In this document: positions 46-14,709 of the stretch, piece by piece
How the letters are laid out: every line of letters starts with the position of its first letter
How positions within the stretch are numbered: the stretch's first letter is position 1
Source of the DNA: Verrucomicrobiia bacterium
Lineage (GTDB): Bacteria > Verrucomicrobiota > Verrucomicrobiia > Limisphaerales > DSYF01
DNA: 64,000 nt
Direction of reading: 5' to 3'
Assembly: GCA_035765895.1 (NCBI GenBank)
Contig: DASTWL010000014.1
Span: 16,804 to 80,803, forward strand
The notes under the pieces: generated by a model
The model's database searches: none
What the model saw: only the letters and a program-made list of their open reading frames with translations
What the model was told of the DNA's origin: nothing
Made by a program: the position numbers and the translations under genes

Positions 46-3000
46 TTAAGGAATCGAAATCCGGAAGAAGCGGCGGAGGTCGTCCGACGGGATGGCCCAG
101 TTCAGCGAGACCGGATCAAAGCCAAACGTGCCGGTGCGTTCCACGGTCCAGTCGGCCAGTGGCAAAGCCAGATTGGTGCTGGCCAAAATGGAATAACTCT
201 GTCCCGCCGCGCCGCTGAAGCAGAAATTGAATTCGCGGCTGCCGGACAGGCCGGCGCCCTGGACGGCCGGTGCGGGCACTTCCGGCGCCGGCGCCGTCGG
301 CACCACGGCCGACCAGCTGGTGCCCAGGCCAATGGCGCCGTAATCAAATTGTTTGCCGCTGTAACCGCCGCGCAAAAAAAACCGGTCGAAACTGAAATCG
401 CCGGAAACGCCGCCGAGGTAGGTCGTCGCGGAACTTTGACTGTTCTCGCCAGCGGTCGTGTCGGGATCAAGCCACACGGTCAGGGTGTCGTCGGCATTGG
501 CGTGGTAATCAATCCGCGCCACGAGCAAATGCACCTGCGCATCCACAAAAAGGTAATTGCCGCTGTGGTTGACGAGGTCCGCCGAGGTGCTGGTGGCGGG
601 CGACCAAAGGCTGAACGCCCAGGCGGATGAACTGTTGCCGATCAAAACTCCCGTGGTGTCATCGCTGCGGCTCAATTGCAGTCCGCCGTAGGCACCGTTT
701 CCGGTATCAAAATGCGCGCGAATCAGAAATCGCAGGTAGAGCGTGCCGCTGATGTTCCCACCGCCGATGGTGCCGCTGGCCGAATCCAGGAGCCCGGCGT
801 CCGCGAACGGTCCGCCGGCGGACAGGTCGGGCAATGCCTCCAAGTTGGAGCCGTCGCCCTTGACGGTGACCGTCCCGCCGGAGGAGTGGAGCAATGGCGA
901 GGTCAGCCCCGGAAAGGAAACGGTTGCCGCATCGGAAACACTCGCGCCAAAAGCATTGTCGAGCCCGAGCCATGAGCCGCCGGTGGCAAAACCGGTGCCA
1001 TGAAAGGCTGTTCCCGGAAGATTGCCCGCCGCGTAATTGCCGAAATTGTCTTCCAACAGAATCTGGCCGGCCGCCCATCCCGAAGCCGGAAAAACGGTCA
1101 GGCTAAACTGGGCGCTGGCGGTGTTGGCGCCATCGGTCACGGTCAACGTCACCGTGCTGCGGCCGGTGCCGCCGGGACTGGGTGTGAGCGTGACGGTGCG
1201 GCCGGCGCCCGTGCCGTCGATCACAATGTTTTGCGTGGTCAGCAGGTTGGTGTTGCTGGACGACGCGATGACGGTGAGCGGATTGCCGCCGGTTGAACTC
1301 ACCGTAAACGGAATGGCCGGGGTCGGCGTGGACGCAGCGGTGGTCTGGTTGGGCACCGTGGAAATGCCGACGGTGTTGTTGAGCGTCAGGTTGGAGAAAA
1401 CCGCCTGGTTGTAATGGGTGTCATCCACGGCATTGGTGGCAGCGATAGCCGCCGTGACAGCCAAACCCACGTAGGCCTGCGCATTGAATCCCGGAATGCT
1501 CACCGCCGCCACCTGGGTCCACTGCGCGCCGCTCGTGGAGGCGTAGGCGATGAAGCTGTCGCCCGTGCGCAGCAAGCGCAACCAGCATGGCGCCGTGAAT
1601 CCGGAGATGGTCGTGGTTTGTGCCGCCGCACCGGCGGTGGACCGGCTTTGAAACACCAGATGATTGTCGGCGGTCAGGGCAATCACGGCGTTGCGCGCGG
1701 TGGCGTCCAGACCTTCGCTGAACAGGATGCCGGCTTCCGCACCCGCGCTGGCGGATGGTTGGCCGGTCAGGCGCACCACCAATTGGGCATTGCTGACGCA
1801 GGGCTGATAAAGATAGTGAAAACCGTCGTTGGTGCCGCCGATGCCCGCGCCGCCGCCGCGCACGAGCCAGACGGCATTGGACGACGTGGACGCGCCCTCA
1901 ATGACGTTGCCGCTGGCACCGACACAGCCGATGTCACCGGAGGTCCACGGGCTGGAAGCCGAAGCGAACGTGGCGACCAGCACATTGCTCGTCAGCACGG
2001 AACTTTCCGGCAAAGTCACTTCAAAGACATCGGCATCCGGCGCGCCGTTGGCCGCCCCGAGCGGCATCGCCGTGGTGTTTTTCACGCGCCGCATGACCGG
2101 GCCGATGGGCTGGCCGTTCAGCGTGACTTGTGCCGGGGCAAGGTCATCCGGCCAGTGGGGCGGACGATGCAGCCGCGCCACCCATGAACGTTGGGTGAGC
2201 GCACCGGTGAAGGTGCCGGCGGCCGGAGCAATCGCAACGGAAACGGTTTTCGCCGCGTCATCCGCCCACGTTTTGAGGGTGGTGGTGCGGAACTGACCCG
2301 CTTGGTAAGCCGTGGTCAGGGTGTCATCCTCGTAAAGCGTCGTCTGGTCGGTTTCCGTGGTGCTCGGATACACGTCCAGCGTGACAGGATCCCAGGGCAA
2401 CTGCCCGGTGTATTCCATTTGCGGCGCGAGCGCAAAGATCGAACCGGAACGGATGAACAAGGGGATCTGGCCGAGCGGGGCGTCCACGGCGGCGGTGGCC
2501 GGGCCGTTCACGGTGGCGCCGGTCCAGGCATTGATCCATTTGCCCGGCGGAACCCAAAGGGTCCGGGACGGATTTGCCCCGAGCGATTGCAACGCAATCA
2601 CGTCTTTGCCGCCCAACTGCAAATACTCGAGGCGCAGCGAGCAGGTTTGGCCGGCTTTTAGGATGCTGCTGGACGTCGTGGTGACGGAGTCATTGGGGCC
2701 CCAATTGTCGATGCAAAGCTGGTTGTCCACCCAGACGCGCACGCCGTCGTCGGACAACGCGGCCAAATGCACGTCGCCGGCTCCGGGCGGGATGGTGAGG
2801 TTGCCAATCCACCGCACGGTGAAATTTTGCGCCGGCACGGAACCGCCGGGGCTGCCGCTGTTCCAATTGAAATCAAGGTTGGGATCCACCCGCGTCAACG
2901 TGGGCGCGCCGCTCAGGTTCGTGCTGGAAAAATAGGCGGCGTTCAGCCCAGGCTGGCCGTTTGTCGTGGTCAGCCACGACGACGGAATGGTGGTCGCGCC

Positions 3001-4670: not shown

Positions 4671-5588
4671 TCACGGATTGATGTCCGTCGCAAAGTGGCT
4701 GGCCACGTAATACAGGTCTTCCTTGTCCGCGTTGGCCAGGGCACCGGCGCTCGAGGCGCCGCCAATGTTGTAATACTTGGAGGGACTCAGGCTGTTGGCA
4801 AAATTGATGACCAGTTGATTAACCCACTTGTGGGATTCCGCATGCCCATCGGCAAAGCTGAACGTGCTGTTGGCCCCGTGAAACGCCGCCGGCGAGTCAA
4901 CCCATTGGGCGGTAAAAAACGGCGAGGGGCCAATGTCCGGTCCGCCGGGCTTCATGTCCCACGCATGCTGGTTTTCGATGTAGGTCGCGCCCCCCAACGA
5001 CTGGGAAGCACATTCCTCCACCCACAAGAACCGGTCGCTCGCGTGCATCAGCTGGGATTCCTTGCTGATGGTTCCCAAGTGGCTGCCCGGAAAGGCGGTG
5101 CTGTCGCCGCCCACAAAGCCGCCGGCGCCCGAGTAGCTGTCCCAACAATACTGCGGCAAACTCTTCCGCACATCCCCGGGGCAATGCAGGACATCAGCGT
5201 TGGGCGCATAGGGATACAGCGGGCCGATTTTGTAGCCCTCCCGAAAACGCCATTGGATGGCGTCCTGACCCGAAAGGCTGGCGGGCGGCGTGGTGGGAAC
5301 CAAATCGGCCTCCACCCGCCAGTTCGCCGGGTTGGCGCCCGGGATCGTGCTGAAACCCACCACCCGGCCGGCATTGTCACTCACATACATCGTCCACGCC
5401 AGGGCCAGTTGTTTCTGGTTGCTCAGACACGTTGCCTGGGTTGCCCGTTTCTTTGCGGCTGACAACGCCGGCAGCAGCAGCGCCGCCAGAATGGCAATGA
5501 TGGCGATGACCACCAACAGTTCAATCAGCGTGAACCCGGCGCGCGTCCGGGCGGATTGACGGACCCTGGTTTTCCGCCGAAAGACCAT
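4671..5588 (-). CDS. Prepilin-type N-terminal cleavage/methylation domain protein with C-terminal H-X9-DG motif (pseudopilin-like)
   Basis: [25 protein letters not shown] prepilin signature. [14 protein letters not shown] fits H-X9-DG. The start was moved to the ATG at 5588 (MVFRRKTRV), which places the pilin motif near the N-terminus; the ORF track starts at 5714. Confidence 0.85.
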
Positions 5589-5641
5589 GATTTCTTCGAT
5601 GTAGATTTTCAACTTGTTCGTCCCGATTGAGGTTGCAAAGG

Positions 5642-5670
5642 CTGGCGGGGCCACCCCGGGACCCCGCCAG
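5642..5670 (-). terminator. GC-rich hairpin between the 1179-aa gene stop and the H-X9-DG gene start (possible terminator/attenuator)
   Basis: ctggcgggg (5642-5650) is the exact reverse complement of ccccgccag (5662-5670), giving a 9-bp stem with an 11-nt loop. Only a weak U tract (CCUUUGC) follows on the minus strand. Confidence 0.4.
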
Positions 5671-5720
5671 CTGTCCATGGCGCGCTGTTCCTTCAAGCCG
5701 CGGCCCGTTCCCAATGATTG

Positions 5721-8700
5721 CTACTGGCGCAGGCGATAAAATTCCGCCGCATTGGTGGTGGACAAAGGCTGCGGGTTGGATTGATTTGCCTTGTCGGTCC
5801 AGGGTCCGCTTACCGCAGGCGCACTTTGCAGCGTGCCGTCGCCGGTCCAGGAAAGCTGCCCGTTCTGGATGCTCAACCGTCCCGGTGGCACGACCGCGGG
5901 GAAGCCAAGGTCCTGCGCGGAGGCCGCGACGACCACGTTGGTAAACTCGGCAAAGGTCGATCCGTTGCCGCAACGCAGCCGGATGTTGTTGAACGTATTG
6001 TTCATGGAGACCGTCAACGGCGATTGCGGTTGGTTGGCCAGACTCTTGGAGAAGTCGGGATCCAGCCAGATGGACTCGGCCGTGGGGCCGTTGGAGGCAT
6101 ACACGCTCTTGATCACGAACGTATGCCATTCGCCCGGCACGATGGGCGTAATGGGCAACACATCGGGCTCACCCGCCTCCTTGGCATCCGCACTCCAATT
6201 CGTGGACAGCCAGGCGTTGCCGACCAGCAATCGTTCGCTGTTGTCCTGGAAGAAATGCAGGCCGCCAAAGGAGCCGCCGGCGTTGGGATCAGTTTGTGGG
6301 AAGTCGTAAAACACCATGCTGAACCGCGCGTAAAGCGTGTTCGTGGACGCGGGGCCGAAATTGCCGTTGAGCCAGCCGTTCTGCGAATCCCACAAGGTCA
6401 CGTATGAGCCTTCGTAAACATCGAACGGCCCATCCAATTTTACCGGCAGCGTGGGATACGAATCCGCCGTAAAGGACCACGTCGCGTAATACGGCGTGTT
6501 GTTCGAGTCCGTCAAACTGACTTGCACCGTGTGCGCCGATCCCGGCGTGAAGGCACTGGGCGGCTGGTAACTCATCGAGATGGAGCTGGCCGTGACGGTG
6601 AAGCTCGGGTCCACCGGATTGCCATCCAAAGTCATGACGACCGTGTTGGTGCCGATGCCGTAGGAGCCGAACAACACATCCACACCCACGGGCGTGGACA
6701 CCGGCGCGGACGAGGCGTTGACGGCAGGAACATAGTTTTGAAATACCGGATCCATCGAGGGGGCGAAGCCAACCCCGTCCGAAGTCGCCGCCACCAAGAT
6801 GTTGGAATACAGGGCGCTGGCCGGCGCGAAGCCCGCACGCAGACGGATGTTGTTGAACGCATTGTTGCAGGAAAGCTCCAGCGGGGGATTGGGTTGGGCG
6901 GCTTCAGTCTGGCCAAAGTCCGGGTCCAGCCAAACTTTAACCGTGGCATTGCCGCCGCCGGCCGGATAATCCGCGCGCACGACAAACGTGTGCCATTCAT
7001 TGGTCGCAAAAGGTATGTAGGGAGGAATGTCCGTGTCGGGAACCGCCGCCGCCACGCTCCAGTTGGCGGTGCCACCACCCTTGCCGGTCAGCAACCGCTC
7101 GGTGTTGTCCTGGAAAAATTGCAGGCCGCCCCAGGTGGGACCGGGTGGATTCAGATTAACAAAGTCCGCGCTGAAACGGACATACAGCGTTTTCGCAAGC
7201 GTCCCCTGATAATTGGTCCCGATCCAGGGATCGTTGGTCGCGGCGAAAATGACGGTGTCCACATTGTTGCTGGCGGCAAACGTCCGGTTCAGCGCGATCG
7301 GCAGGGCGGCGAAACCGGTCGTAAAAGTCCACGTGTTCGTGAACGAACTGCTGTTCGCATCCGTGACCACCAGTTGAACGGTGTGCAGCGTGCCCGAACT
7401 CAGGGGCGTCGAGGGTTGGTAACTGATCCCGAGGATGCTCGGGGAAATCGCGCTCGTGTCCGGCGTGACAGCGCTGCCGCCATCAATGCGGAGCGAGGCG
7501 GACTGGATGGGGTAACCGCCCACGAGCACCTGCGCGCCGATGCTGGTATTGGTGGCGATGTCAAACGATCCCGGCGCCGGAAGCTGCGCCTGGAATTGCG
7601 GTGCCACCGAAGGTGGAAATCCCACGTCGGTCGGTTGCGCGCCCACGATGATGTTGGTCCACGTGGCGCTGGCCGTGCCATTGCCGCAGCGGAGCCGGAC
7701 GTTGTTGAAACTGACATCCGCGCTCAGCGTGACCACATTTGTCTGCGCTTCCTGCGGTTGGCTGAAATCGGGATCCAGCCAGATTTTCACGCTGTCGTTG
7801 CCATTGGTCTGAAAGTCGATGCGCTCGACGATGGTATGCCATTCGCCCAACACCACGGGCGTCAGTGGATTGAGATTCATCTGCAGGCCGCCCGCATCCA
7901 GGCTCCAGTTGGTGGAAACCCACGCGTTGCCGGCGATCAGCTTTTGCGCATTGTCCTGCATGAAATGCAAACCGCCGTAACCGCCGCCATTGCCGGTTTC
8001 GCCATTCAGGTCATTGAAGACCATGCTGTATCGGGCATAAAGAGTCCGGACGGAGTTGGTGTCATAGTTGGTGCCCAGCCAGGCTTCACCGGCGGCTGTA
8101 AGAATCGTCAGATCATTGCCACCGCCCGTGGTCAGCGGTCCGGCCAGCGCCACCGGCAATGCCGCGTAGCCCGTGGTAAAGCTCCACGTGTTGGTGTAGG
8201 AAACCGTGTTGTCGTCCTGCACGATCACCCGAACCGTGTGCGTCGTGCCATAGTCAAATGTCGAGACCGGCGTGTAACTGATGCCCATGAGACTCGAACT
8301 GCCGGTGACGGTGGGCGTGACCGCATTGCCGTCGAGCGAGAACGACACGGACGCCAAATTCAGCGGCACACCGCCGGAGGCCACATTCAGGCTGATCGTG
8401 GCGTTCGTCGCCACGCTCAGAGCACCCGCCCCGGGCGAAAGCGCCTGAAACGACGGTGGCGTGGCGGAAATAATCGTCAGCCGGTCAAACTGATAATCCT
8501 GGCCGTTGCCAGGCGAGGTGCCGGCATTGCGCCGGATGAAGGCCGACTGGGCGATGGGCGCATTCGCGATGGTCCCGGTGAAACTGGCCCCAGTGGCCAG
8601 ATCGGTGAACGTATAAGTCGTGGCACTGTTCAAGGTGAACTTGTAGGTGACAAATTGCTGGTAGGCATACTGAAAGTTGGTCGCCACCCCCACGCTCGTG

Positions 8701-9182
8701 GTGGCATCGCTATACCAGCCATTCAAATTGTCGCCGCCCAGATGCCAGTAGCTGAACAAAATGTTTCCGCCTGCGTCTTCGAGCGCAAAACGGTTCGTGG
8801 TATTCCCGTTGTCCAAACTGTTCAAACGCAAGGCCACCAGAAAGGAATCTCCCGGCGAGAGGGGCGTGTTGAAAGGACGGATCGCCTCGGTGCCGTTGTT
8901 GGCCGAGGTGTTCCACAAATCAAATGAGTAACCACTCGGGCCGTTGTTTTGAATGAACGCGCCGCCCGTGCCCGTCACGGTAAAGGTCCAGGGGCCGAAG
9001 CCGTAGCCGCCGTTCTGGCCGCCCGTGCCCAATCCGTTGGGTGCGCCCAGTCCGGTGTAGGCAGGATCAGAGGCCTGATCAAAGGCATTGGTGGTTTGGG
9101 CGGAAGCCTGGTTCATGGCCAGCCAGGTCGTGACCAGGGCAGCCATCATCAGCGATGTCTTGCAGTGGGTTCGTTGTTTCAT
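5721..9182 (-). CDS. Large secreted protein: N-terminal domain, three tandem [Ig-like + TLY..WLDPD jelly-roll] modules, terminal FYR-type module
   Basis: Signal peptide MKQRTHCKTSLMMAALVTTWLAMNQASA if the start is the ATG at 9182. Repeated motifs in each module: NTW(S/T)FTTG, TLYARFSMVF, GGLHFFQDN, IWLDPDF, FNNIRLRCGNG. Ends AAEFYRLRQ. Confidence 0.8.
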   Translation of the reverse strand: MKQRTHCKTSLMMAALVTTWLAMNQASAQTTNAFDQASDPAYTGLGAPNGLGTGGQNGGYGFGPWTFTVTGTGGAFIQNNGPSGYSFDLWNTSANNGTEAIRPFNTPLSPGDSFLVALRLNSLDNGNTTNRFALEDAGGNILFSYWHLGGDNLNGWYSDATTSVGVATNFQYAYQQFVTYKFTLNSATTYTFTDLATGASFTGTIANAPIAQSAFIRRNAGTSPGNGQDYQFDRLTIISATPPSFQALSPGAGALSVATNATISLNVASGGVPLNLASVSFSLDGNAVTPTVTGSSSLMGISYTPVSTFDYGTTHTVRVIVQDDNTVSYTNTWSFTTGYAALPVALAGPLTTGGGNDLTILTAAGEAWLGTNYDTNSVRTLYARYSMVFNDLNGETGNGGGYGGLHFMQDNAQKLIAGNAWVSTNWSLDAGGLQMNLNPLTPVVLGEWHTIVERIDFQTNGNDSVKIWLDPDFSQPQEAQTNVVTLSADVSFNNVRLRCGNGTASATWTNIIVGAQPTDVGFPPSVAPQFQAQLPAPGSFDIATNTSIGAQVLVGGYPIQSASLRIDGGSAVTPDTSAISPSILGISYQPSTPLSSGTLHTVQLVVTDANSSSFTNTWTFTTGFAALPIALNRTFAASNNVDTVIFAATNDPWIGTNYQGTLAKTLYVRFSADFVNLNPPGPTWGGLQFFQDNTERLLTGKGGGTANWSVAAAVPDTDIPPYIPFATNEWHTFVVRADYPAGGGNATVKVWLDPDFGQTEAAQPNPPLELSCNNAFNNIRLRAGFAPASALYSNILVAATSDGVGFAPSMDPVFQNYVPAVNASSAPVSTPVGVDVLFGSYGIGTNTVVMTLDGNPVDPSFTVTASSISMSYQPPSAFTPGSAHTVQVSLTDSNNTPYYATWSFTADSYPTLPVKLDGPFDVYEGSYVTLWDSQNGWLNGNFGPASTNTLYARFSMVFYDFPQTDPNAGGSFGGLHFFQDNSERLLVGNAWLSTNWSADAKEAGEPDVLPITPIVPGEWHTFVIKSVYASNGPTAESIWLDPDFSKSLANQPQSPLTVSMNNTFNNIRLRCGNGSTFAEFTNVVVAASAQDLGFPAVVPPGRLSIQNGQLSWTGDGTLQSAPAVSGPWTDKANQSNPQPLSTTNAAEFYRLRQ
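5877..8447 (-). repeat. Three tandem coding repeats of about 855 nt (285, 284 and 288 aa modules) inside the 5721-9182 gene
   Basis: Module boundaries counted from the translation: 7593-8447, 6741-7592 and 5877-6740. Each module starts Q(A/N).. and ends ..GF(P/A)PS/PAV. The motif order is conserved, but the repeats are diverged at the DNA level. Confidence 0.8.
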
Positions 9183-9448
9183 AGGGGTTTGTGTCAGCTT
9201 GTCGGCGTTTGCGTTCCCGCTTGAGGGAAAATGAACCAATAATTTCAGATTGGTGACCAATCCGTGGTGGTGGCGCTGCGATCACCAACCTCGCGCGACC
9301 ATTCGACCGGGGAGCCGCTCGCACGGCGGTCCGCAACGAAATCGGCCCGGCGCCGTCAGACGTCTTCGAACCACTTGTCACCGTGGCCGACGTCGAGAGA
9401 CCGCTTACGAGAATGGGCTAAAAATAGAGCCGCAGTTGGAACGGACAA

Positions 9449-9466
9449 TACCCATGAACGTGGGTA
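9449..9466 (-). promoter_or_regulatory. Candidate NarL/LuxR-type operator: TACCCA-N6-TGGGTA inverted repeat upstream of the 1179-aa gene
   Basis: The plus strand reads ACAATACCCATGAACGTGGGTA. TACCCAT matches the E. coli NarL heptamer TACYYMT. The half sites TACCCA and TGGGTA are exact reverse complements. It lies 267-284 nt upstream of the start at 9182. The left half plus flank recurs at 10454-10469. Confidence 0.45.
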
Positions 9467-9530
9467 GTCAGCCTTCGCGCCCGCGCGACCGGAGAGGCGG
9501 GCGTCAATTCAATTTGCGCATCGAATGGAC

Positions 9531-9568
9531 GGACAACAAACCCGGCATTCACCTCAACGAATGCCGGG
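9531..9568 (-). terminator. Rho-independent terminator after the PEP-CTERM gene
   Basis: 10-bp stem cccggcattc / gaatgccggg (9541-9550 / 9559-9568) with an 8-nt loop, followed on the minus strand by UUUGUUGU. It starts 27 nt after the stop at 9595. Confidence 0.7.
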
Positions 9569-9594
9569 GAGTCGTTCATCACGAGCCAATAAAC

Positions 9595-10350
9595 TCACAT
9601 TCCGCGTCCGGAACGACGACGCAAAACCGCCAGCAACCCCACGCCCGCCCCAACCAGCGCCAGCGATGACGGCTCCGGCACGGGACTGATGTCCACGGTC
9701 AGGTTGTCCAGGTTGATGTCAGCGCTGTTGCCGTTGCCGATTCTCAACCCGTCAAGCGCCAGGCCGGCCGGTCCGGTGCCGCTGGCAGAAAACCCGGAGG
9801 ATGAGAACGTCCAGGCGCCGGTGTCGTATTCGTAAGTCAGCGTCAGGTGATTGTTCAGCGTGCTGTCGGCACCAAAGTAGCGGCCAATGGAGCCGTCCGT
9901 GCCCCAGGCAGAAGCGCTGGGATCGCCCGCAAACATTGTTTCCGATCCCGGGTTGTTGGCGTCCACAAAACCCGCATACAGGCTGATTCCCGCCCAGCCA
10001 TTGTTGAGTGACGCACCATTGGACGGCGGAAGCGTGTCGAAAGAAAGCGTGAGCACCTCGCCGGCTCCCAAAGCGGCGGTGAAGCTGTTGAACAGCAGCC
10101 GCTGATCGCCGCTGGTGTCCAACGAATTGGCCGCGCTGACGGCCGCCGGGCCCGGATTGGCCCCGGCGCTTCCGCCCCAAAGCCCCCCGACGTCCGCGGC
10201 TTTGCCGATGATCAAGGTTCCCGGAGCTTCGCTAAAATCATCAGAAAACACAGTGCTTCCGCGGCACAGGGACGGGCAGGCTGCCAGCGCCAGGCCGGCA
10301 AACAAGGGAGTCAAAACGTGAATTGAGCGACGGAAGAGCGGTTGTTTCAT
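9595..10350 (-). CDS. PEP-CTERM sorting domain secreted protein
   Basis: Signal peptide MKQPLFRRSIHVLTPLFAGLALAA. C-terminus VPEPSSLALVGAGVGLLAVLRRRSGRGM has the PEP motif, a TM helix and a basic tail. The body has a degenerate version of the neighbouring jelly-roll motifs (GWAGISLYAGF.., LDGLRIGNGNSADINLDNLTV). Confidence 0.85.
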   Translation of the reverse strand: MKQPLFRRSIHVLTPLFAGLALAACPSLCRGSTVFSDDFSEAPGTLIIGKAADVGGLWGGSAGANPGPAAVSAANSLDTSGDQRLLFNSFTAALGAGEVLTLSFDTLPPSNGASLNNGWAGISLYAGFVDANNPGSETMFAGDPSASAWGTDGSIGRYFGADSTLNNHLTLTYEYDTGAWTFSSSGFSASGTGPAGLALDGLRIGNGNSADINLDNLTVDISPVPEPSSLALVGAGVGLLAVLRRRSGRGM

Positions 10351-10457
10351 GCGCAGGTTTTTTGTTTTAGGAATCCAAATGTCACCCCGGGTCGTTTTTG
10401 AGCGACCGGCTCAAGGGGATCGGCGGGAGAGGCTACAACTGCTGCGGGGCGCAACAA

Positions 10458-10475
10458 TACCCATAAACGGGTGTA
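10458..10475 (-). promoter_or_regulatory. Second candidate NarL/LuxR-type site, upstream of the PEP-CTERM gene
   Basis: The plus strand reads ACAATACCCATAAACGGGTGTA. It is identical to the 9445-9460 site at 15 of 16 positions (ACAATACCCAT[G/A]AACG). The right half is degenerate. It lies 108-125 nt upstream of the start at 10350. Confidence 0.4.
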
Positions 10476-10569
10476 TGCCAAACCAGTTGGAGTCGGCCGC
10501 AGGCGGGAACATCAAAACCCATCGCGCGGGGTTCAGCGCCATTGATGCCCGGTCACGCCGGCCCGTGTT

Positions 10570-11253
10570 TTACGGCACCACGAAAGGCGGGGGCTGCAGA
10601 TATTTCGCCGCCGCTTCACCCCGCGAATGGACGTGCAGCTTGGCGTATATGTGCTTCACGTTCATGCGGACGGTTTCGATGCTGAGCGATAGCTGATGCG
10701 CGATGTCCTTGTAAGTCGAGCCCTTGGCAAGCAGTTCCAGCACTTGTTGTTCCCGCGGAGACAGGGCGGCCACGCTGTCGTCCTTGGCGGCGCCGATCTG
10801 GTTGAAGTAAGCCACCACCTTGCGGGCAATGCTGCTCGACATGGGCGAGCCGCTGCCATGCACCTGCCGGATCGCCTCCAACAACTCCCCGGTGCTGGTG
10901 CGTTTCAACAGGTAACCACTGGCGCCGGCCAGCAGCGAATTGAAAATTTTCTCGCTCTCCTCATAGACCGTCAGCATGAGACACCGCACTTCCGGCCAGA
11001 GCGTTTTGAGCCGTTTGACGCACTCCACACCGTCCATGCCCGGCAGGTTGATGTCCATCAGCACCACGTCGGGCGCATCATTGGGGATGCCCCGCAGGGC
11101 TGCCTCCGCTGTTCGATACGCATTGACGCAGTTCAAGTCCGGATCGCTGTTGATTTCCCGGGCCAGATTTTCCCGCAACCAGGCCTGGTCCTCGACGATC
11201 ACCACCTTGATCCGGGCGGTGGCGGAACGGTTTTTGTCACCGGTAGTTTTCAT
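10570..11253 (-). CDS. Two-component response regulator, NarL/FixJ (LuxR HTH) family
   Basis: REC motifs VVIVEDQ and DVVLMDINLPGMDG. LuxR-type HTH LSPREQQVLELLAKGSTYKDIAHQLSLSIETVRMNVKHIYAKL. The start overlaps the kinase stop by 4 nt. Confidence 0.95.
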   Translation of the reverse strand: MKTTGDKNRSATARIKVVIVEDQAWLRENLAREINSDPDLNCVNAYRTAEAALRGIPNDAPDVVLMDINLPGMDGVECVKRLKTLWPEVRCLMLTVYEESEKIFNSLLAGASGYLLKRTSTGELLEAIRQVHGSGSPMSSSIARKVVAYFNQIGAAKDDSVAALSPREQQVLELLAKGSTYKDIAHQLSLSIETVRMNVKHIYAKLHVHSRGEAAAKYLQPPPFVVP

Positions 11254-12653
11254 GATGCGGTTTTCCCCCGGCGGATCGGAAAATAAAATCTCACGTCGGT
11301 GCCCGCTCCCGGCCGGGTGGCAAATTCCACCCCACCGCCGATGGCGCTCATTCGTCGCTGCATGTTTTCCAGGCCATTTCCCACGCCGGTGGCTTGATCG
11401 AGCCGGAAGCCTGTGCCGTTGTCCGCCACCCGGATGGAAATTTGATTTTCTCCCACCTGCAAAGCGAGCTGGATTTCCGTGCAGGCCGCATGCTTGACGG
11501 CGTTGTTCAAGGCTTCCTTGACCACCATGAACAGGGCGTGCCGGACCTCGGCCGTCACCGGCAGGTCAGGCAGGGCCAGCGGCACCTGCAACTGGCAGGC
11601 GATGGTGGTTGAACCCAGCAGATCCTTCATGAAATACACGAGGTAGTCGGCCATTTCCTTCAACGTGTCGTTCCGGGGATTGATCGCCCAGACGATTTCG
11701 TCCATGGCCCGGATGGTGTCGCGGGCCGTTGCTGCAATGGTCTGGCGCGTCTCGGCGTTCGCCTCCCTGACCTGCTCATGCAGCTCCATCAAATCGCTGA
11801 GCTTGCTGATTTTTGTGAGGCTTACCCCCACTTCATCGTGAATGTCCTGGGCGATGCGGGTCCGCTCCGTCGCGACCGCCCGCTCCTTTTCAAGCTGCTG
11901 GATTTGGACCTGGGCACGCCGCCGTTCCAACAGCTGCACCGCCCCCGCCACCGCCGCCAGCAACATCGCCACGCAGATCGCCACGAACCACCATGCCTGC
12001 CAGAAATGCCGCAACAGCACGTCTTCAAATGACGTTCCCACCACCATCTCGCTGAACTTCCAGCCCCCACCGTAGCCCCGATGGATCAGGCGGAATTCGT
12101 CGAAGGTGGCGTCGGTCTCAAAATGAACCACGATGTTCCTGGGCTGGTTGAATTCGGTCGCCCCGGTGGAAAGATCCGGGTTCAGCCAGACCGTGACGCG
12201 CGCGTCCCGACCGGGCTCGTAATCAATTTTAAAAACGATATACCGCGGCGTGCCGGCCCGCATATACTCGTAGGCAAACGGCGGATCGGGAGACGCCGAG
12301 TTGAAATCCTGGAAGCCCTTCGGTGCCTTGGGCACATGCAGGGCCGAGTAAGCCATGGCCCCTCCGGCATTGCCGATGCCCAAGTGCTCCTGCCGTTTTG
12401 CCACCAGCATGAATCCGGCCTCGAATTGATTGATCACCTTCGCGGCCGTGTCGGAAATCGGATCGACCTTGATACGAAAATAAAGCGTGCCAGACGAATT
12501 GGTGGTCTGTGGCGGAATTGCCCCGTGAAGAATGTCCTCCCCGTCGCCGTTGTTGCAAACCAGGACCGCTCCAGGATGGCTCCACAAAATCGCGCCCCGT
12601 GCGGGAAACGCAACGGCCAGAAACGCGACGGCCAACATGACCGCCGCGCTCAT
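11250..12653 (-). CDS. Sensor histidine kinase (HisKA_3/NarX-LiaS type) with a periplasmic TLY..WLNPD jelly-roll-like sensor domain
   Basis: H-box RIAQDIHDEVGVSL. HATPase motifs EALNNAVKHA, DNGTGF and GNGLENM. Signal/TM1 MSAAVMLAVAFLAVAFPARG from the ATG at 12653, and TM2 WWFVAICVAMLLAAVAGAV. The sensor domain spans about 12018-12593. Confidence 0.9.
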   Translation of the reverse strand: MSAAVMLAVAFLAVAFPARGAILWSHPGAVLVCNNGDGEDILHGAIPPQTTNSSGTLYFRIKVDPISDTAAKVINQFEAGFMLVAKRQEHLGIGNAGGAMAYSALHVPKAPKGFQDFNSASPDPPFAYEYMRAGTPRYIVFKIDYEPGRDARVTVWLNPDLSTGATEFNQPRNIVVHFETDATFDEFRLIHRGYGGGWKFSEMVVGTSFEDVLLRHFWQAWWFVAICVAMLLAAVAGAVQLLERRRAQVQIQQLEKERAVATERTRIAQDIHDEVGVSLTKISKLSDLMELHEQVREANAETRQTIAATARDTIRAMDEIVWAINPRNDTLKEMADYLVYFMKDLLGSTTIACQLQVPLALPDLPVTAEVRHALFMVVKEALNNAVKHAACTEIQLALQVGENQISIRVADNGTGFRLDQATGVGNGLENMQRRMSAIGGGVEFATRPGAGTDVRFYFPIRRGKTAS

Positions 12654-12824
12654 CCGCCTGACCTCGTGATTGCCTTGGAGTGTCCTGCGCGCCCGGCCCG
12701 CTTCGCCACACCACGCTTCCATGTGCCGGTGTCCTTGAAGCGTGAGGGTTTTGTGGGAGGTCTTCACCGTTGATGCCGTTGCCCGGATTCATGGGGAACA
12801 GCCTGGCCCGGGCTTCAAAGGCGG

Positions 12825-13829
12825 CTACTTCACCAACACTTCGGCAATCTGCACGGCGTTCAAGGCGGCGCCCTTGAGCAACTGGTCGCCGCAGACCCAG
12901 AAGGCCAGGCCGTTCTCCATGGCGCAGTCCCGGCGGATGCGCCCGACCTCGCAATGGTATTTCTCGGACGTGAACAGGGGCATCGGATACTTTTTGTTCT
13001 CCGGCTCGTCCACCAGATCCAGACCGGGCGCCTGTTTGAGGACGTCGCGCGCCGCGGCCACGGTGACGGGCTGCTCGAACTCGGCACTTACGGCCACGGA
13101 ATGCGAGCGATACACGGGCACCCGCACGCAGGTCACACTGGCCCGGAAGGAAGGATGATGCATGATCTTGCGTCCCTCGTTTTCCATCTTCATTTCCTCC
13201 TTGGTGTAACCCGAAGGCAGGAAGGCATCGACCTGCGGCAGCACGTTGAACGCGATCTGATGCGGGTAAACCTCCTTGGTTACCGGCTGCTGGTTGACAA
13301 TCTGGCCAACCTGCCGTTCCAGTTCCTCGAGCGCCTTGGCGCCCGTGCCGGACACGGCCTGATAACTGGAGGCAAAAATGCGCTTCACGCCAAAGGCCTT
13401 GTGCAACGGATACAACGCCATCAGGGTGATGGCCGTGGTGCAGTTGGGGTTCGCAATGATGCCCTTGTGCCACCGGCAGTCCTCCGCGTTGATTTCCGGA
13501 ATCACCAGCGGGACGTTGTCGTCCTGCCGGAAGGCGCTCGAGTTGTCCACCACCACGCAGCCGGCCTTGGCCGCGATGGGCGCGAACTCCTTGGAAATGC
13601 TGCCACCCGCACTGAAGAGCGCGAGGTCGATGCCCGCAAACGAATCCTGGGTCAATTCCTGCACTGTGATGTCCGTGCCCTTGAATTTCAGCTTCTTGCC
13701 GGCCGACCGGGCCGAAGCCAGCAGCGTCAGCTTCCCGACCGGAAACTGACGCTTTTCCAAGGTTTTGATCATTTCAATGCCAACGGCGCCCGTCGCGCCG
13801 ACCACGGCCACATGCGGATTGCGATTCAT
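12825..13829 (-). CDS. asd: Aspartate-semialdehyde dehydrogenase
   Basis: VAVVGATGAVG Rossmann motif and the active-site region IIANPNCTTAITLMALYPL. 334 aa from the ATG at 13829 (MNRNPHVAVVG). Confidence 0.95.
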   Translation of the reverse strand: MNRNPHVAVVGATGAVGIEMIKTLEKRQFPVGKLTLLASARSAGKKLKFKGTDITVQELTQDSFAGIDLALFSAGGSISKEFAPIAAKAGCVVVDNSSAFRQDDNVPLVIPEINAEDCRWHKGIIANPNCTTAITLMALYPLHKAFGVKRIFASSYQAVSGTGAKALEELERQVGQIVNQQPVTKEVYPHQIAFNVLPQVDAFLPSGYTKEEMKMENEGRKIMHHPSFRASVTCVRVPVYRSHSVAVSAEFEQPVTVAAARDVLKQAPGLDLVDEPENKKYPMPLFTSEKYHCEVGRIRRDCAMENGLAFWVCGDQLLKGAALNAVQIAEVLVK

Positions 13830-13968
13830 AAAGCGGCGGGAGGATACCCGCGAAGCGCAGCGTGTCAACGTGAGGCGGCCGGTATTGCCCTTGAAATCGG
13901 CCGGAGCGAAACTACTCTGTCTCCGAAGCAAGTGGCCGTCATTTGCTTGGAATTTGGGATCCAACACC

Positions 13969-14709
13969 ATGCCCATCAGCCGAGGCCGCCGCACTTGGAC
14001 GTCGTTTGACGAGATGCGCGAGGCCGCCGAAAAAGGCGACCCGCAGGCACAATGCTACCTGGGAGTCTGCTACCAGACCGGCCAGAGCGTCGCGCCGGAT
14101 CCCGTCGAGGCCGTGCGCTGGTATCGCAAGGCGGCCGACCAGAACGATCCCGTGGCCCAATGTTACCTCGGCTTCTGCTATCAGTCCGGCATTGGCGTGC
14201 CGCAGGAATTTGGCGAAGCCGCCAAATGGTATCGCGAAGCGGCCGAACAAGGTGACCCCGCCGCCCAATACAACCTCGGCGTCCTCTACGAAACCGGCCA
14301 GGGCGTCCCGCAGAATTTTGCGGAGGCCTTCAAATGGTTCCAAGCCGCCGCGGAACAAGGCGAACCGCAGGCCCAGTTCAATCTCGGCGTTTACCACGAA
14401 ACCGGCCAGATCGTCCCACAGGACTTCGCGGAAGCGGTCCGCTGGTATCGGCTGTCCGCCGAACAGGAATGCGCCCCCGCCCAGTGCAATCTCGGCCTGT
14501 GTTATCAGACCGGCCGCGGCGTGGAGCCCGACAATCGCCAGGCCGTCCGCTGGTTCATTCGCGCCGCCAAACAGGGGGACAAAACCGCCCAGCATAATCT
14601 CGGCGTGCACTACGCCATGCTGGAAATTGAAGCCGAAGAAAAGGCGCTGGCGGATGCCGAGGCCGGGACGGAAGGAGAAGCCGAACCCACCGCCGAAGAG
14701 GAGGCATAA
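13969..14709 (+). CDS. Sel1-like (SLR/TPR-like) repeat protein
   Basis: At least 7 consecutive repeats of about 36 aa of the form AQxxLGxxYxxGxGVxxDxxEAxxWYRxAAEQG. The start was chosen at the ATG at 13969, away from the divergent asd. Confidence 0.9.
   Translation: MPISRGRRTWTSFDEMREAAEKGDPQAQCYLGVCYQTGQSVAPDPVEAVRWYRKAADQNDPVAQCYLGFCYQSGIGVPQEFGEAAKWYREAAEQGDPAAQYNLGVLYETGQGVPQNFAEAFKWFQAAAEQGEPQAQFNLGVYHETGQIVPQDFAEAVRWYRLSAEQECAPAQCNLGLCYQTGRGVEPDNRQAVRWFIRAAKQGDKTAQHNLGVHYAMLEIEAEEKALADAEAGTEGEAEPTAEEEA

Follow-up and report, generated by a model that had tools for sequence, protein, structure and literature searches.

Why do two intergenic regions of one bacterial gene cluster carry an almost identical short DNA element, and which protein would read it? 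The question is raised by a stretch of 64,000 nt (hereafter the window; C14:16804-80803 of a 4.64-Mb assembly, 62% GC) from an uncultured Verrucomicrobiia bacterium; the cluster is encoded entirely on the minus strand. One copy of the element, S1, stands upstream of a gene for a secreted lyase-like protein, and the other, S2, upstream of a gene for a PEP-CTERM-anchored protein; a response regulator and a histidine kinase are encoded nearby (Table 1). As judged from the sequences, the two copies are very probably operators that the neighbouring response regulator, a member of the NarL family, would bind; they would serve as class II activator sites, with a glycan-sensing kinase as the probable input. 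The computations show directly that the sites are unique in the genome and conserved, that they keep a constant spacing to promoter-like hexamers and that they vary together with the regulator type. Soil Verrucomicrobiia that have not been brought into culture are abundant degraders of complex glycans, yet hardly anything is known of how they regulate their genes. The locus provides a concrete regulatory unit for this lineage, comprising a sensor kinase, a regulator, an operator sequence and a promoter architecture.

The original prediction drew attention to two 16-mers, ACAATACCCATGAACG (9445-9460) and ACAATACCCATAAACG (10454-10469). Both are present and are identical at 15 of 16 positions; with up to one mismatch allowed, the 16-mer has no further occurrence in the genome, and when the two intergenic regions were shuffled 300 times a match of 15/16 was never reached (maximum 14). 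The perfect inverted repeat TACCCA-N6-TGGGTA described for the first site was confirmed at 9449-9466, where it occurs once in the 4.64-Mb genome. The intergenic regions that contain the sites, 9183-9594 and 10351-10569, are indeed the largest two of the cluster, the former being bounded by the corrected start of the lyase-like gene, which comparison of start codons with orthologs places at ATG 9182 and not at TTG 9260 (open reading frame (ORF) 5721-9260). Read in gene (minus-strand) orientation, the shared element extends over 22 nt, TACCCACGTTCATGGGTATTGT at S1 and TACACCCGTTTATGGGTATTGT at S2, and the flanks of the two copies are unrelated. Its type can be written as an 18-bp TACCCAT-N4-ATGGGTA dyad, behind which come TTGTyn, a spacer of 16 nt and the hexamer TAnnnT. 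With a symmetrised matrix S1 scores 27.9 bits and S2 24.0 bits. A genome-wide scan, made with a 22-mer matrix from five orthologous sites only and with the window sites left out, ranked S1 (33.4 bits) and S2 (30.2 bits) first and second among ~9.3 million positions, the next score being 18.3. The bare TACCCAT heptamer is not enriched in the window (2 found versus 2.0 expected); the signal sits in the full dyad.

A weaker element, TTCATGGGGAACA, had also been proposed upstream of the kinase gene (12788-12800, plus strand). It scored 4.7 bits and is not supported as a site, being a single half-site, ATGGGGA, whose partner half GCCCGG fits at 2/6 positions. No second dyad was found before the co-directional kinase gene in any ortholog locus. 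On the far side of the dyad in divergent loci, no in-register promoter hexamers were seen by eye, so autoregulation through the dyad is not supported. Two further explanations for the repeated element were ruled out: a general promoter element or dispersed repeat, since the genome holds no other copies, and a segmental duplication, since the similarity stops at 22 nt. The near-match TCAATGCCCATGAACG on C13 and C91 lacks a partner half for a dyad and seems to be due to chance or to coding sequence. Within the GH31 coding region, CACCCATGAACGTTGGGTG (window 2180-2198) has 12 nt, ACCCATGAACGT, in common with S1; its half-sites are 7 nt apart, it scores <8 bits with the dyad matrix and it probably arose by chance.

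The compared order consists of uncultured Verrucomicrobiia (Pedosphaera/Limisphaerales-like) known from metagenome-assembled genomes only, and the comparison covers about 20 related soil-bacterium genomes. Of 401 genomes sampled from the order, 10 contained lyase-like homologs, and further homologs were obtained through a scan of species-representative genomes. In the closest syntenic locus, G042, identities to the window are 77% for the GH31 protein, 74% for the lyase-like protein, 79% for the regulator and 69% for the kinase; this cluster has no PEP-CTERM gene and carries TACGCATCTTCATGTGTATTGT upstream of its lyase-like gene. Orthologous intergenic regions, whose conservation had been suggested as a check, keep the dyad in front of the lyase-like gene in G042, G249, G075, G352, G136 and G401-G405. 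A dyad before the PEP-CTERM gene was found in five genomes, namely that of the window, G402, G403, G405 and G042. Two dyads each, before a PEP-CTERM homolog (50-74% identity) and before the lyase-like gene, are present in G402 (L095) and G403 (L097). In G405 and G042 the PEP-CTERM homolog lies on a separate contig with the dyad and the same downstream hexamers retained, the dyad of G042 being its own variant type, TACACATTATTATGCGTA. The two-promoter regulon would thus be conserved even where its genes are unlinked. When the exact pattern ATACCCATRAACG was searched across 60 relatives, only scattered single matches were obtained; conservation emerges only when the dyad model is applied to true orthologs. 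Five of the loci (L080, L081, L082, L098 and L102) bear the public titles Dongiaceae, Bifidobacteriaceae/Bifidobacterium or Candidatus Sulfotelmatobacter on contigs clearly of this Verrucomicrobiia group, and these off-group names are probably binning or labelling errors.

Next to the sites, as the original prediction had stated, the genes encode a regulator with REC and GerE domains and a HisKA_3 kinase (Pfam). The regulator scores 84.7 bits for Response_reg (cut-off 30.2) and 59.2 bits for GerE (cut-off 23.5), and its phospho-acceptor Asp region, DVVLMDINLPGMDG, aligns to DLILLDLNMPGMNG of NarL. It can be aligned over its full length with DevR (3c3w, E = 7e-31) and NarL (1a04, E = 6e-28). 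The kinase gene is adjacent, upstream and overlapping, with 32.7 bits for HisKA_3 and 52.7 bits for HATPase_c. The recognition helix TVRMNVKH aligns with TVKVHVKH of NarL, and the helix TVRMNVKHIY is confined to this regulator among the 21 proteins of the genome with a GerE-type helix-turn-helix (HTH) domain, the next closest being 59% identical with different contact positions.

The assignment also draws on covariation between helix and operator. Loci were classed blind, by the type of the adjacent regulator and by a position weight matrix for each operator type. In group M, where the regulator is 69-79% identical to that of the window and its helix reads T[IV]RMN[IV][KR]HI, a TACCCAT-type dyad of 20-30.5 bits precedes the lyase-like gene in 8/8 loci. 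In group X, where the regulator is 43-46% identical and the helix reads TVRN[YH]IRF[IV], the operator TGACGCAWTTGYGTCA (26-31 bits) is found without the M dyad in 7/7 loci. The operator type thus switches with the helix of the adjacent regulator in 15/15 loci, while the sensor domains and target genes stay constant. The group-X palindrome, TGACGCAATTGCGTCA, occupies the same promoter position as the M dyad, with a distance from centre to TAnnnT of 31-32 nt versus 31 nt for the M dyad. In G352 and G136 the kinase-regulator pair is transcribed divergently from the dyad-bearing intergenic region. Assigning the sites to the adjacent NarL/LuxR-type regulator, offered as an inference in the original prediction, is strongly supported on comparative grounds by the conservation of the dyad, the helix covariation, the uniqueness of the helix and the resemblance to NarL, and the regulator is the likely binder of both sites. 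A perfect X-like 7-2-7 palindrome, TGACGCACTTGCGTCA (G000 C90:582-597), was judged probably unrelated; it lies in an AT-rich region with no cluster homologs nearby, ~1.6 kb upstream of an ORF that is catalase-peroxidase-like by its N-terminal sequence, not confirmed by domain search.

How the sites would act may be read from their position. Sixteen M-type promoters were aligned in gene direction, giving the order dyad, T(T)GT(y)n, 16 nt and TAnnnT. The TAnnnT hexamer stands exactly 22 nt 3' of the dyad in 13 of the 16, with 0-1 at each other offset from 14 to 31. If TAnnnT is taken as the -10 element, the dyad spans about -52 to -35 with its centre near -43. In gene direction, nTTy is read at the 4-bp centre of the dyad in 16/16 promoters, so the operator is directional, also in the two loci in which the kinase-regulator pair is divergent from the target gene. 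S1 and S2, centred near -43, would accordingly resemble class II activator sites of a sigma-70-type promoter. By eye, nothing like a sigma-54 promoter was noticed, though no search aimed at sigma-54 motifs was made. In the window, the lyase-like gene has a predicted 5' leader (9183-9420) of ~230 nt, versus roughly 60-100 nt in most orthologs, and this leader has no Rfam match.

A kinase whose sensor is a lectin-like jelly-roll probably provides the input to the system. Its periplasmic domain (~aa 60-255, window 11982-12635) lies between two hydrophobic/transmembrane segments. A Pfam search of this domain gave no family; in blastp it matched the C-terminal module of the GH31 protein (E = 3e-8) and the lyase-like protein. 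An AlphaFold model, built with 15 orthologs, is an all-beta jelly-roll (predicted local distance difference test 73.9, predicted template modelling score 0.76), and in Foldseek it resembles most closely PL7 alginate lyases, a glucuronan lyase, legume lectins, galectins and carbohydrate-binding modules. The model suggests a ConA-like, carbohydrate-binding fold class. The sensing domain of the kinase resembles substrate-binding modules of the enzymes that it may control.

Taken together, the membrane kinase would sense a glycan or glycan fragment through its periplasmic jelly-roll domain, which is related to modules of the controlled enzymes, and would then phosphorylate the regulator. A dimer of the regulator may bind each dyad and recruit RNA polymerase in the manner of a class II activator. 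Two transcription units would be turned on in this way, the lyase-like/N-methyl/GH31 operon and the PEP-CTERM surface-protein gene. Binding of the regulator to S1 and S2, the sign of its effect and the nature of the signal are what we infer from the features described above.

The dyad was also used as the only query in a blind scan of metagenome contigs. With the DNA string TACCCATRTTYATGGGTATTGT alone, 28 exact matches were obtained, of which 26 were evaluable. In 19 of these 26, what follows within ~50-290 nt in the same orientation is homologous to the PEP-CTERM-type module, the lyase-like protein or the GH31 protein, and in some contigs GH31 homologs have a dyad of their own. The remaining seven matches precede other secreted proteins, including LamG-like, aldose-1-epimerase-like, 848-aa ricin-lectin-containing and beta-helix-like proteins, which look glycan-related from their sequences alone, without domain search. 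Exact operator copies before other secreted proteins were seen in L186, L201, L206, L187, L197 and L204, and such operators suggest larger regulons in some relatives. The motif is thus usable for the annotation of regulons in metagenomes.

Several observations count against the reading of S1 and S2 as activating operators of the adjacent regulator. The left half-site of S2 is degenerate (TACACCC), and all 16 sites have a 7-4-7 arrangement and not the canonical 7-2-7 of NarL. The proposed -35 and -10 hexamers are weak, with averages of 3.1 and 3.4 of 6 matches. S1 lies ~275 nt from the start codon versus 100-140 nt in most orthologs. Foldseek TM-scores (template modelling scores) for the sensor are low, at 0.3-0.45, and no more than hint at the class of ligand. 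Because the loci under comparison share ancestry, the numbers of conserved sites overstate independence, though the flanks have fully diverged. Finally, the conserved TATTGT could itself be the -10 element, which would put the dyad inside the core promoter, in the position of a repressor.

The last point leads to an unlikely alternative, in which the same regulator would use S1 and S2 as repressor operators, with TATTGT as the true -10 and the dyad filling the -35/-10 spacer, so that RNA polymerase is blocked. TATTGT overlaps the dyad at its 3' end and is indeed the best-conserved -10-like hexamer (average 4.0 of 6), and a consensus scan of S2 selects TTGGCA-16-TATTGT (10481-10454) as a rival promoter. 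NarL itself represses some promoters, e.g. frdA, via 7-2-7 sites near the start site (PMC4549865). Nevertheless, the upstream -35 of such a promoter averages 2.4 of 6 with the best of three spacers, which is essentially random, and is good only at S2. Repression of this kind does not explain the TAnnnT hexamer 22 nt downstream in 13 of 16 promoters, nor is there an extended -10 TG at TATTGT, the conserved TTG being -35-like. Moreover, the unrelated X palindrome has an equal distance to its own TAnnnT. Activation rather than repression is therefore what the geometry and the analogy with known activators would favour.

Palindromes of 18 bp are bound by many dimeric families of transcription factors, and another factor encoded elsewhere might bind the dyads, the adjacency of the NarL-type regulator being coincidental. 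This is very improbable, given that the operator type tracks the adjacent helix in every locus classed while sensor and targets remain unchanged, that the kinase-regulator pair of G352 and G136 is divergent from the dyad-holding region, and that the heptamer fits the NarL-family consensus and the helix is NarL-like. It is scarcely credible that the match has no protein-binding role at all and either arose when a promoter was locally duplicated as the PEP-CTERM gene inserted, or forms an RNA hairpin in the transcripts. The syntenic cluster of the closest ortholog, G042, lacks the PEP-CTERM gene, which was thus gained or lost locally, and the dyad could fold as a hairpin with a 7-bp stem and a 4-nt loop. 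On the other hand, the resemblance of S1 and S2 ends with the 22-nt element, which is kept across genomes in which every flank has diverged. Half-site departures are one-sided in 13 cases and mirrored in 1, with no compensatory pattern, so that base identity is conserved and not pairing alone. The fixed register with the downstream -10-like hexamer puts the dyad upstream of the transcript, and the dyad has no Rfam match.

The proposed operators of the NarL-family regulator may be compared with several known systems. NarL and NarP of E. coli recognise TACYYMT heptamers (PMC4886647), with which TACCCAT, the consensus of the 16 aligned sites, agrees as predicted. They favour inverted heptamers 2 bp apart (7-2-7) and activate napF and yeaR from about -40 to -49 (PMC4549865). 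Similar to NarL and NarP, the present regulator combines REC with a GerE-type HTH, has a HisKA_3 partner kinase and faces inverted heptamers that fit TACYYMT; its recognition helix is similar to that of NarL, and the position of its proposed sites resembles that of the activating napF and yeaR sites. Unlike NarL and NarP, it is paired with a kinase whose sensor is an all-beta jelly-roll and not a NarX-type nitrate sensor, its targets are secreted glycan-active proteins and a PEP-CTERM protein instead of respiratory genes, and the regulon is tiny (two promoters) and belongs to the phylum Verrucomicrobiota. The site may nevertheless work like a NarL operator although it is not the canonical 7-2-7, an arrangement that the X operator does have.

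Dimers with a GerE-type HTH bind 18-20-bp dyads in the LuxR/TraR-type and GacA/UvrY-type regulators. At lux-box and tra-box promoters the centre of the site lies in the low -40s, overlapping or abutting the -35 element in class II activation, and the GacA box is a 6-N6-6 18-mer. LuxR and TraR are controlled by ligand and not by phosphorylation, and GacA targets small-RNA genes. Compared with all these boxes, the half-site sequence differs here. In polysaccharide utilisation loci of Bacteroidota, a hybrid two-component system places a carbohydrate-sensing kinase beside glycan-degrading genes, with AraC-type output. The functional logic of a periplasmic carbohydrate-sensing kinase beside the genes that it would control is similar, as an analogy only. 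The architecture is unrelated: the hybrid kinase is a single polypeptide, whereas in the present locus kinase (HisKA_3) and regulator (NarL-type) are two proteins and SusC/SusD genes are absent. In PEP-CTERM/exosortase systems, the sigma-54-dependent, NtrC-type PrsR and its kinase PrsK are encoded beside PEP-CTERM or extracellular polysaccharide genes. The present regulator has REC and GerE only, with no AAA+/sigma-54 interaction domain in Pfam. No described equivalent in Verrucomicrobia was found in the literature. The operator pair would define a small, conserved glycan-degradation regulon in uncultured Verrucomicrobiia, by a mechanism whose kind is not new.

A close relative of the system is its group-X sister (L072, L073, L074, L075, L082, L084-L088 and L092; operator TGACGCAWTTGYGTCA in the 7-2-7 arrangement), and G136 has one M and one X locus. 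The two systems share the sensor (69-75% identity), the targets (lyase-like, then N-methyl) and the promoter geometry, and differ in the DHp-CA, REC and HTH modules (40-55% identity), the heptamer and the spacing. Identity to the window in X and M loci, respectively, is 69-75% and 53-74% for the kinase sensor, 48-55% and 56-72% for DHp, 40-48% and 47-63% for CA, 44-50% and 70-81% for REC and 51-54% and 78-87% for HTH. In the sensor tree the X sensors nest with those of the window, G042 and G249 on short branches (support 98/93), while M and X are separated by ~2 substitutions per site in the regulator tree and ~1.4 in the DHp-CA tree. In the latter two trees L082 is misplaced through an artefact, as a second, unrelated regulator and kinase of this locus entered. 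The nesting of the sensors together with the distance of regulators and transmitters leads to the view that a transmitter/regulator/operator module was exchanged on a constant sensor and constant targets.

Within group M a finer correspondence can be seen. A Lys in the helix (RMNVKH) pairs with TACCCAT and an Arg (RMN[VI]RH) with TAC[G/A]CAT; Arg-helix regulators are those of G042 (L041, L181), G404 (L098, L182) and the paralog G403:C56 (L177, L178). At heptamer position 4, Lys is accompanied by C in 15, A in 5 and G in 0 cases, and Arg by C in 0, A in 3 and G in 7 (Fisher's exact test, p = 2e-4, uncorrected for relatedness). We tentatively propose, giving it slightly less than an even chance, that the core (DHp-CA, REC, HTH and operator) was naturally replaced wholesale with sensor and targets kept, and that a change from Lys to Arg at the position of NarL K192 tracks a change from C to G/A at heptamer position 4. 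If so, two orthogonal 'wires' join one input to one output, M with TACCCAT in 7-4-7 and X with TGACGCA in 7-2-7, and the exchange of Lys for Arg would be a readable rule of one residue and one base for the specificity of NarL-family regulators. The M/X pairs and Lys/Arg variants may provide a natural data set on the evolution of DNA specificity and pathway insulation in this family, and may also supply candidate orthogonal parts for synthetic circuits. In the paralogous system of G403:C56 the regulator is 60% identical, TACGCAT dyads stand on both sides of the regulator gene, and two more are located 30 kb away.

Table 1. Features of the cluster, its proposed regulatory sites and two related elements of other loci
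Feature	Coordinates	Strand	Remarks
GH31 + PA14 glycoside hydrolase, 1507 aa	46..4569	-	Pfam; probably last operon gene
Jelly-roll modules related to the kinase sensor	298-1070 (region of GH31); 5877-8447 (of lyase-like gene)	-	blastp
Prepilin-type N-methyl protein	4671..5714	-	6-nt gap after lyase-like gene; probably co-transcribed
Secreted lyase-like protein, 1153 aa (putative target gene 1)	5721..9182	-	Pfam Big_5 and Polysacc_lyase-like jelly-roll modules
Putative core promoter, lyase-like operon	9421..9448	-	TTGTCC (9448-9443), 16-nt spacer, TATTTT (9426-9421)
Proposed operator S1, 18-bp dyad	9449..9466	-	TACCCAC-GTTC-ATGGGTA in gene direction; upstream of lyase-like/N-methyl/GH31 operon
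Terminator-like hairpin	9541..9568	-	12-bp stem, then T-rich tail; 3' of PEP-CTERM gene
PEP-CTERM-anchored protein, 251 aa (putative target gene 2)	9595..10350	-	Pfam PEP-CTERM
Putative core promoter, PEP-CTERM gene	10430..10457	-	TTGTTG (10457-10452), 16-nt spacer, TAGCCT (10435-10430)
Proposed operator S2, 18-bp dyad	10458..10475	-	TACACCC-GTTT-ATGGGTA in gene direction; upstream of PEP-CTERM gene
NarL/FixJ-family response regulator, REC + GerE HTH	10570..11253	-	helix TVRMNVKHIY; proposed binder of S1 and S2
HisKA_3 histidine kinase with periplasmic sensor	11250..12767	-	Pfam
asd	12825-13994		
~660-aa ORF in relatives	L095 3765-5744; L097 3290-5272		also metagenome loci L184, L185, L190, L194, L202, L204, L205
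PEP-CTERM-body module	window 9595-10350; L095 5914-6567; L097 5485-6072; L083 916-1575		

The gene order of the cluster is in part conserved. The N-methyl gene follows the lyase-like gene in essentially all orthologous loci, and the order of the GH31 gene is syntenic in G042 and G075. The predicted terminator-like hairpin divides the PEP-CTERM unit from the S1/lyase-like unit. A conserved ORF of ~660 aa with an N-terminal transmembrane segment, absent from the cluster of the window, stands regularly 3' of the PEP-CTERM gene in relatives. In some genomes the lyase-like protein has an N-terminal module that is 50-67% identical to the body (~aa 5-225) of the PEP-CTERM protein; the module therefore occurs both free and surface-anchored and fused to the enzyme.

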